17,909 nt of DNA from Mycolicibacterium xanthum. Its GTDB lineage: Bacteria > Actinomycetota > Actinomycetes > Mycobacteriales > Mycobacteriaceae. Below the pieces are notes generated by a model. The model was not told the DNA's origin. It was given only the letters and a program-made list of their open reading frames with translations, and searched no databases. Shown one piece after another: positions 14,819 through 16,590 of the stretch. The DNA lies in NCBI RefSeq assembly GCF_019710635.1, contig NZ_JAIFZS010000041.1:1-17909 (forward strand), read 5' to 3'. The stretch's first letter is position 1; each line of letters starts with the position of its first letter. The translations under genes were made by a program, and so were the position numbers.

Positions 14819-15478
14819 ATGACTAGTTTCGTCTGGATGAAGGTTCTGGAGTCGGCGCCGGAGCGCTATGACCGCGGCATCCGGATGCTGTCGGGCGGGC
14901 GCATCGCCGCGGTCTACGAGCGCATCGCCGATCTGGTTGCTGCACCTGGCAAACGAGTCCTCGATATCGGCTGTGGCACCGGCGGCGTAACGGTGGCCTG
15001 CGCGGCCCGCGGTGCGACCGTGACCGGCATCGACATCGATGCGGGCATGCTGGAGATGGCCCGAACCAAGCCGCGCTCCACATCTGGCAGCGCGGAGTTC
15101 GTACAGCTTGGCGCGGCGGAAATCGAGGATCGCTTTGCCGCGGAAAGCTTGGATGCGGTCGTGTCATGTCTGGCGCTGAGCGAGATGTCGCCCGAGGAGC
15201 AGGACTACGTGCTTCGCGCCGCTTATTCGTGTTTGGCCCCTGGGGGCGCGCTGGTAATCGCTGACGAGACGACACCGGAGGGACGCCTTTCGCGGCTCGG
15301 GTATCGCCTGCGGCGGCTGCCGCTCGCGGCGGCGACATATCTACTCACTCAGACCACGACCAGGCCGCTGCGTGGTCTGTGCGCACGAGTGCAGGCAGCC
15401 GGGTTCTCGATCGCTTCGAAGGAGCGGATGTGGTCGGGGAGGTTCCTGATCCTGCACGCATACAAGGCGCGGTCATGA
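14819..15478 (+). CDS. class I SAM-dependent methyltransferase (UbiE/Methyltransf_11-25-like), about 219 aa
   Basis: Frame of track ORF 14750..15478. SAM-binding motif I VLDIGCGTGG, then an acidic residue at the end of beta-2 (TGIDID), and PGGALVIAD (motif III region). Start chosen at ATG 14819 because GC3 rises after it. GTG 14750 and ATG 14837 remain possible. The stop TGA 15476-15478 overlaps the next ATG. Confidence 0.85.
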   Translation: MTSFVWMKVLESAPERYDRGIRMLSGGRIAAVYERIADLVAAPGKRVLDIGCGTGGVTVACAARGATVTGIDIDAGMLEMARTKPRSTSGSAEFVQLGAAEIEDRFAAESLDAVVSCLALSEMSPEEQDYVLRAAYSCLAPGGALVIADETTPEGRLSRLGYRLRRLPLAAATYLLTQTTTRPLRGLCARVQAAGFSIASKERMWSGRFLILHAYKARS

Positions 15479-16590
15479 AGATCACCGACTTTCCTGCGTA
15501 CCTCCGCGACCGGGTGTTGGGCATGCTGCCGCACCGCGCCCCGACTGGGCTGATCCGCATCGGGAAGCCGGACCGCCACTCGCCGGTGCTGGTCACCGGT
15601 AACTTCACGCTCACCGTGCGACGCCTTCGCGATGCGCTGCGTGGCCATGATGCTTGGTTGCTGGTGGCCAACAGCAAAGGAATCGATGTGTGGTGCGCTG
15701 CAGGTGGCGGCCACCTCACCCATCACGACATCATTTCCGCGATCCGTACCTCGGAGCTCGCACATGAGGTCGACCATCGGGAAATCATCTTGCCGCAACT
15801 CTGCGCCACCGGCGTCGAGCGCCCTCCGATCACCGAAGCGACGGGATTTGCGACGCGGTGGGGACCGGCACGACTCGAAGACCTGCCGGCCTACCTCGAC
15901 CGCGGGGCGCAGACGATCAAGAGCGACCGCTCCATGCGTTTTCCGGCCTGGGAACGCCTGGAGATGGCGGTGCTGCTCGTTGTGCCGATGCTGATTGTCC
16001 TGCTTCCGATTTTGGCGGGTCTGTTCGGTTGGGCAACCATGGCGGTGGGAGGTGCGACCGTCGGCTTGTTCGTGGCCGCGTTGTTCGGCCTGCTTCCATG
16101 GCTGCAGGTTCGAGGGCGTCGGCGCTTTCTGACATTCGCCGGCTTCGCAGCGGGGGCCGGCCTTTTCGGTTGCGCATTGTTGTCAATCGTTGACGCGGCG
16201 ACACCGGCTCGCCTGACGGCGGTGAGCGTCGCGGCAGTCGCCGCGATCGCGGTTGCGTCGATTGATCTCGCCGGGTTCACGCCCTGGTATGGGAGCTATA
16301 TCAACACTTTCCACAACGAGGCGCACATCGAATTGATGGCCGCCCGTTGCACGGCTGCGGCGGAGTGTGTGCAGGTGTGCCCGCGAGACGTGCTCGAAAT
16401 GAACGAGACTCAAGACAAGGTGGAGATCAGGAAACCCGATTGGTGCATTCAATGCGGCGCCTGCATCGTGCAGTGTCCTACCGATGCATTGCGCTTCCGA
16501 TACGGCGACGGCCGCGTCGTCGAGGCGCCGACCATACGTCGGACACGCATGAACATGCTGGGGCGCCGCAGCGTCGAAATGCCTGATTGA
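15475..16590 (+). CDS. HgcA/HgcB-like fusion protein: N-terminal corrinoid-binding domain (CFeSP/HgcA-type, cap-helix Cys), 4 TM helices, C-terminal 2x Fe-S ferredoxin domain; 371 aa
   Basis: Frame of track ORF 15379..16590. ATG 15475 overlaps the methyltransferase stop (ATGA). It is collinear by eye with HgcA: SPVLVTGNFTLT, DAWLLVANSKGIDVWCAAGGG (Cys74), EIILPQL, TGF..RWGP.RLEDLPAYL. Hydrophobic segments lie at about residues 164-186, 188-209, 218-239 and 247-268. Ferredoxin motifs: CTAAAECVQVCP (CxxAxxCxxxCP) and CIQCGACIVQCP (CxxCxxCxxxCP). Confidence 0.85.
   Translation: MKITDFPAYLRDRVLGMLPHRAPTGLIRIGKPDRHSPVLVTGNFTLTVRRLRDALRGHDAWLLVANSKGIDVWCAAGGGHLTHHDIISAIRTSELAHEVDHREIILPQLCATGVERPPITEATGFATRWGPARLEDLPAYLDRGAQTIKSDRSMRFPAWERLEMAVLLVVPMLIVLLPILAGLFGWATMAVGGATVGLFVAALFGLLPWLQVRGRRRFLTFAGFAAGAGLFGCALLSIVDAATPARLTAVSVAAVAAIAVASIDLAGFTPWYGSYINTFHNEAHIELMAARCTAAAECVQVCPRDVLEMNETQDKVEIRKPDWCIQCGACIVQCPTDALRFRYGDGRVVEAPTIRRTRMNMLGRRSVEMPD

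Follow-up and report, generated by a model that had tools for sequence, protein, structure and literature searches.

The mercury methylase of Pseudodesulfovibrio mercurii ND132 consists of two polypeptides: HgcA, which combines a corrinoid domain of the type found in the corrinoid iron-sulfur protein (CFeSP), a cap-helix cysteine that ligates cobalt and a membrane domain of five C-terminal transmembrane helices, and its ferredoxin partner HgcB. In 2024, purified HgcAB was found to take S-adenosylmethionine (SAM) directly, yielding Me-Cob(III) in which a Cys thiolate is the ligand, and HgcB was found to carry two [4Fe-4S] clusters; mutagenesis has marked HgcB residues C73, C94 and C95 as crucial for Hg methylation (PMC11588087). 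Fused HgcAB proteins have been on record since 2015 (PMC4646819). Both P. furiosus (fused protein AAL80853) and Methanococcoides methylutens (WP_048193041) carry fused forms and made no methylmercury, as had been stated correctly for the tested cultured carriers in a preliminary description of the present locus made from its sequence alone; the sole aerobic carrier found in a 2023 study was Breoghania sp. Here, a fused HgcAB-like gene and the methyltransferase gene that immediately precedes it, cpaM, were analyzed in Mycolicibacterium xanthum (also listed as Mycobacterium sp. Y57), with regard to how firmly the two genes are linked and what the methyltransferase contributes. The window is the entire 17,909-bp contig that carries the pair, and all positions given without a locus name are positions in it.

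The cpaM gene (14819..15478, + strand) was taken from the open reading frame (ORF) list and its translation, and encodes a class I SAM-dependent methyltransferase of 219 aa. Its TGA stop codon (15476-15478) overlaps the ATG (15475-15477) of the 371-aa HgcAB-like fusion protein gene (15475..16590, + strand), producing an ATGA start/stop overlap at 15475..15478 (+ strand) of the kind associated with translational coupling. ORF positions and coupling had been reported in the preliminary description and were confirmed by the ORF listing and translation. RefSeq starts cpaM six codons inward, at 14837 (213 aa); the longer start is favoured by an alignment of 59 homologues (A2) with the consensus MSxxVxMKxLESAP. 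A GTG at 15379 would extend the fusion protein gene at its 5' end; all homologues nevertheless align from the ATG at 15475.

Both products were assigned by curated models. CpaM scored 282.9 bits against NCBIfam NF043040 (corrinoid protein-associated methyltransferase CpaM; cutoff 180) over residues 3-214 (model 1-214/216) and matched Pfam Methyltransf_25 at E 2e-20, with the Methyltransf_25/11/12/31/23 models spanning E 1e-13 to 2e-20. Its glycine-rich motif I, VLDIGCGTGG, lies in the Rossmann-fold SAM-binding core typical of class I SAM methyltransferases, and the ATGA overlap agrees with the definition of the CpaM family as a protein whose gene adjoins, or is fused with, that of a corrinoid protein. 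The fusion protein scored 389.3 bits against NF043039 (HgcAB-like fusion protein; cutoff 285) over residues 10-340 (model 4-350/350), and Pfam, hydropathy, an AlphaFold2 (AF2) model and Foldseek together recovered the architecture of that family, in which a single polypeptide holds a corrinoid domain, membrane helices and a ferredoxin domain. By exact-sequence look-up, RefSeq already names these proteins CpaM (WP_221370214.1) and HgcAB-like fusion protein (WP_221370215.1). The pair had been put forward as an uncharacterised two-gene module, and as an unrecognised discovery it does not stand, since NCBIfam curates both families as partners and RefSeq names these very genes. That recognition was found only in the NCBIfam and RefSeq names: the literature search found no paper naming CpaM or a methyltransferase partner (the terms 'CpaM' and 'corrinoid' together gave none), and the Haft selenoprotein preprint mentions neither the fusion nor CpaM. 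In architecture and gene order, no family-level difference separates the window pair from NF043039/NF043040, the fused HgcAB of Podar et al. (2015); within NF043039, the window subclade is set apart by having three cysteines in its first Fe-S motif and a conserved C-terminal tail free of Cys.

Conservation of the gene pair

A scan of species-representative genomes yielded 14 loci, from Actinomycetota, Alphaproteobacteria (including Stellaceae), Steroidobacteraceae (Gammaproteobacteria) and Myxococcota, and in 14/14 a CpaM homologue (56-81% identity) was encoded on the same strand directly upstream. Another 80 loci came from a scan of metagenome contigs guided by a profile, and all 94 were sorted by cap-helix motif. 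True hgcA, recognized by NVWCAAGKG in an ORF without a ferredoxin domain, accounted for 22 of the 94; GKG was present in the cap helix of 22/22 and CpaM was present at 0/22. The fused family accounted for 72 loci, three of which were uninformative because the contig ended, and at 67 of the 69 informative loci CpaM was encoded immediately upstream or in the same ORF. The dedicated class I methyltransferase thus partners the fused family and never true hgcA. Every separate upstream methyltransferase ORF (59/59) matched the CpaM model at E<=1e-10, and a 4-nt start/stop overlap was seen in 44 of the 60 pairs with a separate cpaM (36 ATGA, 7 GTGA and 1 TTGA). The pairing is also present in a cultured strict anaerobe, [Eubacterium] cellulosolvens. 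P. furiosus and M. methylutens did not appear among the 120 matches listed from a profile search. Adjacency on this scale is far beyond chance, and the genes are near-obligate partners that are made together; the conservation of the neighborhood, on which the preliminary description had let its proposal depend, was found at all genome loci and nearly all metagenome loci.

The two proteins also occur as natural fusions. When 1.84 billion representative proteins were searched exhaustively, 1604 relatives emerged at E<=1e-3, 161 of them at E<=1e-30, and ten longer relatives were scanned against the curated models. Seven of the ten (537-644 aa) exceeded both curated cutoffs in a single chain, with CpaM N-terminal and the HgcAB-like protein after it. 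Continuous CpaM-HgcAB-like ORFs were found at five metagenome loci, and a triple fusion of 587 aa is a called gene in an NCBI assembly (GCA_016550425.1). As a Rosetta-stone pattern, these sequences argue for direct physical cooperation of both proteins.

A separate fused subfamily of ~450-540 aa (P0179, P0180, P0186, P0188, P0210, P0235 and ~10 more representatives) was also observed. Its cap helix reads INIWCSSLAG, and its members have an additional N-terminal domain of ~150-190 residues with hydrophobic helices and no methyltransferase domain.

Both proteins of the pair are 70-82% identical among Mycolicibacterium, uncultured soil Actinomycetota, Alphaproteobacteria (Stellaceae) and Steroidobacteraceae (window compared with L001-L010). 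For phyla so far apart this is a high level of identity, which suggests that the two-gene cassette has spread horizontally between bacteria of the soil. GC content across the window is even (0.60-0.66), with no compositional mark of recent transfer, and a tblastn search of 72,556 plasmids gave zero matches, so that plasmid carriage was not seen.

Domains of the fusion protein and comparison with HgcA and HgcB

The corrinoid-binding domain, a base-off domain of the CFeSP/HgcA type, was placed at residues 1-157 (15475..15945, + strand) from the Pfam CdhD match and Foldseek. Residues 19-113 scored 45.5 bits against Pfam CdhD (PF03599; cutoff 24.8). The AF2 model (pLDDT 83.6, pTM 0.78) had as its best Foldseek match 9a0b_A, itself a deposited computational model of HgcA (E 6e-11, 31% identity, 294 columns), followed by corrinoid domains of CFeSP large subunits (2ycl_A, 2h9a_A, 4c1n and 4djd_C; rmsd 3.0 A over ~128 columns, E ~1e-6). 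When solved structures were searched by sequence, those CFeSP chains were the only corrinoid proteins that matched (E ~1e-4). The cap helix reads IDVWCAAGGG, and the codons for W73-C74 lie at 15691..15696 (+ strand). Cys74 is the predicted lower axial ligand of cobalt; Cys-thiolate ligation of Co has been shown solely for true HgcA (PMC11588087). W73 and C74 were invariant in an alignment of 31 diverse fused proteins (A1), and WC was present in all representatives covering the region.

The membrane domain (residues 158-268; 15946..16278, + strand) comprises four transmembrane helices by hydropathy and in the AF2 model. Hydropathy peaks were located at residues 166-184, 189-207, 221-239 and 247-265, and the modeled helices at 158-184, 186-205, 217-238 and 244-268 (pLDDT ~90-96), with an RGRRR loop joining helices 2 and 3. 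Since the number of helices is even, both soluble domains are placed on the same side of the membrane, presumably the cytoplasmic one. The preliminary description had read an HgcA-like N-terminal domain with a cap-helix cysteine, followed by four hydrophobic helices, and had proposed a profile search of the corrinoid domain; the significant matches to HgcA and CFeSP models, the CdhD match, the AF2 model with its Foldseek matches and the hydropathy profile bear out both parts of that reading.

A ferredoxin-like domain follows at residues 283-343 (16321..16503, + strand), with a Pfam Fer4_7 match over residues 291-338 and a partial match to the HgcB model. Its first Fe-S motif (16348..16383, + strand) reads C292-T-A-A295-A-E-C298-V-Q-V-C302-P, with alanine in place of the second cysteine, and is of the three-cysteine type predicted to hold [3Fe-4S]. 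The second motif (16444..16479, + strand), C324-I-Q-C327-G-A-C330-I-V-Q-C334-P, is a canonical CxxCxxCxxxCP. The cluster cysteines therefore number seven, not eight. In the 31 aligned fused proteins C292, C298, C302-P303, C324, C327, C330 and C334-P335 were invariant, and position 295 was Cys across the wider family and non-Cys in the window subclade. The 3+4 cysteine pattern was found in 120/120 closest homologues, 102 of which have Ala at position 295, and a 4+4 pattern in 105/115 members of a distant group. The residues that replace the cysteine at position 295 vary (A, S, V, T, K, E, D), so that no substitute ligand is conserved. The window protein has no cysteine after C334, and none follows the second motif in 118/120 close homologues; the Cys-free C-terminal tail, RYGDGRVVEAPTIRRTRMNMLGRRSVEMPD (16504..16587, + strand), is conserved among subclade members, whereas fused proteins at greater distance lack it.

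From the cysteine count alone, the first motif is most simply read as the site of a [3Fe-4S] cluster like that of 7Fe ferredoxins. Less likely is a site-differentiated [4Fe-4S] cluster whose open iron takes part in catalysis. The 7Fe ferredoxins ([3Fe-4S][4Fe-4S]; PDB 1bc6 and D. gigas FdII, 1fxd) likewise pair one three-cysteine motif with one canonical CxxCxxCxxxCP and were among the sequence matches to residues 291-339, but the domain here is part of a membrane corrinoid protein. The two-cluster, HgcB-like ferredoxin named in the preliminary description is accordingly present as a domain, though not with the standard pair of [4Fe-4S] motifs, as the first motif has three cysteines and the HgcB cysteine tail is missing.

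These results bear on whether the pair could be a genuine mercury methylase, that is, an HgcAB orthologue in an aerobic actinobacterium. The fusion protein and HgcAB have in common the corrinoid domain, the cap-helix cysteine, the membrane domain and the ferredoxin domain, and SAM, the donor of HgcAB, is likely the methyl source here as well. Against the curated models, however, the scores fell below cutoff, at 168.3 bits for HgcA (NF040863, cutoff 275; residues 20-243, model 28-259/325 only) and 54 bits for HgcB (NF040864, cutoff 99; model 4-68/93, with positions 69-93 unmatched). The window protein is one polypeptide rather than two and has four transmembrane helices rather than five. Where HgcB has two CxxCxxCxxxCP motifs, its first motif is CxxAxxCxxxCP. 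Measured against the HgcA cap-helix motif N(V/I)WC(A/S/G)(A/G)GK, its cap helix keeps the cysteine and replaces N with D and K with G, leaving GGG where HgcA has GK. It has no equivalents of HgcB C73 or of the C-terminal Cys-Cys pair (C94, C95), and the fused-form carriers P. furiosus and M. methylutens gave no methylmercury. A mercury methylase is for these reasons considered highly improbable.

Two other single chains, P0263 (445 aa) and P0251 (415 aa), have the true-HgcA cap helix NVWCAAGKG together with two canonical ferredoxin motifs. By sequence they look like fusions of genuine HgcA and HgcB, separate from the HgcAB-like family; one protein of this type has a very Cys-rich tail with 11 Cys, ending SSCCSPCCGSKP.

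Proposed reaction and alternative roles of CpaM

Sequence, fold and comparative genomics establish the domain identities, membrane topology, cysteine patterns and coupling of the pair, and from these we infer a mechanism. With confidence slightly better than even, we favour a self-contained, SAM- and corrinoid-dependent methyl-transfer enzyme of two polypeptides, anchored in the membrane, in which CpaM is the SAM loader of the corrinoid. In the first step, the ferredoxin domain, with its predicted [3Fe-4S] and [4Fe-4S] clusters, would supply electrons for reduction of Co(II) to Co(I). CpaM would then dock at the upper face of the corrinoid and move CH3+ from SAM onto Co(I), giving CH3-Co(III) whose lower ligand would be the Cys74 thiolate, in the manner of true HgcA; the Me-Cob(III) formed from SAM by purified true HgcAB (PMC11588087) serves as the precedent for this chemistry. 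Irreversible methylation would pull the uphill reduction by a 7Fe-type domain of probably higher potential, as in the reductive methylation of methionine synthase. In the third step, an acceptor at the membrane domain would receive the methyl group, which would leave as the equivalent of a carbanion or a radical. Hg(II) is probably not this acceptor, since the protein lacks the HgcB cysteines that Hg methylation requires and cultured carriers of fused forms make no methylmercury. The loader role gains support from the near-obligate adjacency, the natural single-chain fusions and the absence of CpaM from true hgcA loci. The preliminary description had already named the methyltransferase as a candidate loader; comparative support for that idea proved real, and the mechanism itself stays a proposal.

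One of the closest known parallels is CFeSP (AcsC/AcsD) with its methyltransferase MeTr (AcsE; PDB 4djd, 2ycl), in which the same corrinoid fold (rmsd 3.0 A) is loaded by a separate methyltransferase and reduced via an Fe-S cluster. MeTr, however, is a TIM-barrel enzyme that uses methyl-tetrahydrofolate, whereas CpaM is a Rossmann-fold SAM enzyme, and CFeSP, a soluble protein without a Cys-on cap helix, passes its methyl group to Ni of acetyl-CoA synthase. The fusion protein scored 62.6 bits, far below the cutoff of 306, against the model for the CFeSP large subunit / acetyl-CoA decarbonylase-synthase gamma (NF003195), with only the C-terminal corrinoid domain in common (model 321-445/450). 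Methylation of cob(I)alamin by SAM occurs in the reactivation of methionine synthase (MetH; AdoMet domain plus flavodoxin) and in TsrM, a radical SAM enzyme of class B that depends on cobalamin; in MetH the uphill reduction of cobalt is pulled forward by methylation from SAM. The SAM-binding folds of MetH and TsrM are unrelated to that of CpaM, the cobalamin domain type differs (His-on DxHxxG in MetH), and, unlike the fusion protein, they have no membrane domain and no Cys-on ligation.

Several points weigh against CpaM as the loader. For the methylation of its cobalt from SAM (Kd 33 uM), true HgcAB does without a methyltransferase of its own, and by analogy the corrinoid protein of the pair might bind SAM itself, with CpaM doing something else. 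The potential of a [3Fe-4S] cluster may be too high for unaided reduction of Co(II) to Co(I). Two informative fused-family loci have no intact cpaM: at L026 none was found within 2.1 kb and a divergent gene sits upstream instead, and at L015 (759-842) only the last 27 codons of cpaM remain and the sequence after them is unrelated, perhaps because of a rearrangement or a chimeric assembly. We know of no case in which a class I methyltransferase with a Rossmann fold was shown to methylate a corrinoid bound to a protein. Both families are catalogued but biochemically uncharacterised, and the nearest characterised relatives of CpaM (UbiE/UbiG, BchM and ArsM, at 45-60 bits) are small-molecule methyltransferases.

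Those relatives, which act as C-, O- and metalloid methyltransferases, would fit a two-step pathway in which CpaM never touches cobalt and methylates a small-molecule substrate or product of the HgcAB-like reaction. A small-molecule inducer is hinted at by a TetR regulator gene located directly upstream, with overlapping stops and starts, at 6/44 evaluable loci and on two large metagenome-assembled genome contigs, which gives a three-gene TetR-cpaM-hgcAB-like operon (L095 6719-9116, L096 6740-9116, L010, L021, L038, L044, L057 and L067). The ligand of this TetR protein might point to the inducer or the substrate; the window contains no such regulator. In many lineages, however, CpaM is covalently joined to the corrinoid domain at its N-terminus, which together with the near-obligate 1:1 coupling suggests direct domain-domain chemistry, and the invariant Cys-on cap helix is a hallmark of HgcA methyl-Co(III) chemistry. 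A pathway of this kind is judged unlikely.

Genes flanking the pair were compared by all-vs-all ORF clustering and by Pfam searches of the largest flanking ORFs at ~40 loci per side. No consistent third conserved gene was found, and the flanking ORFs other than the TetR gene belong to scattered, unrelated families. As no other gene is consistently linked, the pair looks self-sufficient. This survey bears on a second alternative, in which CpaM and the ferredoxin domain only repair the corrinoid by reductive reactivation, as the AdoMet domain and flavodoxin do in MetH, and the catalytic methyl donor is handled elsewhere. Reductive methylation in the manner of MetH is established chemistry; the clade is found in aerobic-type lineages, where Co(I) would often oxidise, and a three-cysteine cluster of probably higher potential suits a reduction pulled by SAM. 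Corrinoid methyl-transfer systems, however, usually cluster genes for MT I, MT II and an activase, and at the ~40 loci surveyed per side the pair has no conserved neighbour that could serve as a methyltransferase on the donor or the acceptor side; in true HgcAB, moreover, SAM is the catalytic donor and goes beyond a repair reagent. The probability of a repair-only function is accordingly rated as low.

CpaM could also tailor the cofactor or the protein, modifying the corrinoid lower ligand or a residue rather than acting in each catalytic cycle. Class I SAM methyltransferases do modify benzimidazole lower ligands in cobamide biosynthesis, and tight coupling and fusion would fit a maturation role too. 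Maturation factors, on the other hand, are rarely fused stoichiometrically to their client across many lineages, and the surveyed loci have no other linked cofactor-biosynthesis genes, which leaves tailoring very doubtful. CpaM as SAM loader of the corrinoid is retained as the favoured assignment.

The module is common in aerobic-type soil lineages. A more far-reaching and clearly speculative extension, to which we give little credence at present, is that the pair in aerobic soil bacteria performs an oxygen-tolerant form of HgcAB chemistry, in which the 7Fe-type domain and the SAM loader would together drive a Cys-on methylcobalamin to give up a methyl carbanion or radical to a metal(loid) or another electrophile at the membrane. 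If true, organometal(loid) compounds, and conceivably even methylmercury in oxic soils, would have an aerobic biological origin. With a metal or metalloid as acceptor, the module would be a source of organometallic compounds under aerobic conditions that has so far gone unrecognised. Surveys of environmental mercury-methylation potential are confused by fused HgcAB-like genes, and if the acceptor is neither a metal nor a metalloid, the combination of a CpaM partner, no GK in the cap helix and no cysteine tail still offers a criterion by which to leave these genes out of counts of Hg methylators. The contrast of 67/69 with 0/22 loci, the natural triple fusions, the seven-cysteine aerobic-type clade and the absent Hg-handling cysteines make the question of function experimentally approachable.

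Other features of the window

Rfam models searched over the whole window at E<=1 gave 0 matches, with no cobalamin riboswitch or other RNA upstream of cpaM, and a promoter and terminator scan of 14300-17000 gave no signal exceeding shuffled expectation. A CobW-like GTPase gene upstream of the pair (13498-14490) was considered as a link to cobalamin and rejected: its product scored below the CobW cutoff (195.7 vs 332.1), a second such GTPase gene trails another metallohydrolase gene in the window, and neither the CobW-like GTPase nor the GntH-like hydrolase that precedes it was found as part of the module at any of the related genome loci (0/14). The surrounding hydrolases, among which the preliminary description had found it unexpected to meet such a pair, consequently lie outside the module, as do the CobW-like GTPases.

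The two hydrolase-GTPase arrangements consist of an amidohydrolase gene (7320-9017) followed by a COG0523 CobW-like GTPase gene that ends at 10105, and a GntH-like MBL-fold hydrolase gene (12483-13511) followed by the COG0523 CobW-like GTPase gene at 13498-14490 with a 14-nt overlap. Both look like pairs of a hydrolase and a metallochaperone, and the name 'CobW' implies no cobalamin link to the module. The hydrolase encoded at 12483-13511 scored 350.6 bits against the GntH model NF041257 (cutoff 333); GntH is a guanitoxin-biosynthesis hydrolase of a cyanobacterial toxin pathway, and the window showed no further genes of gnt type. Unrelated to the module, the contig's left half (275-6857, - strand) encodes a PPK2 polyphosphate kinase (275-1045), a P-type cation ATPase of 925 aa (1221-3998), an amidase of the choloylglycine-hydrolase family (4360-5376) and an M20 peptidase (5415-6857).

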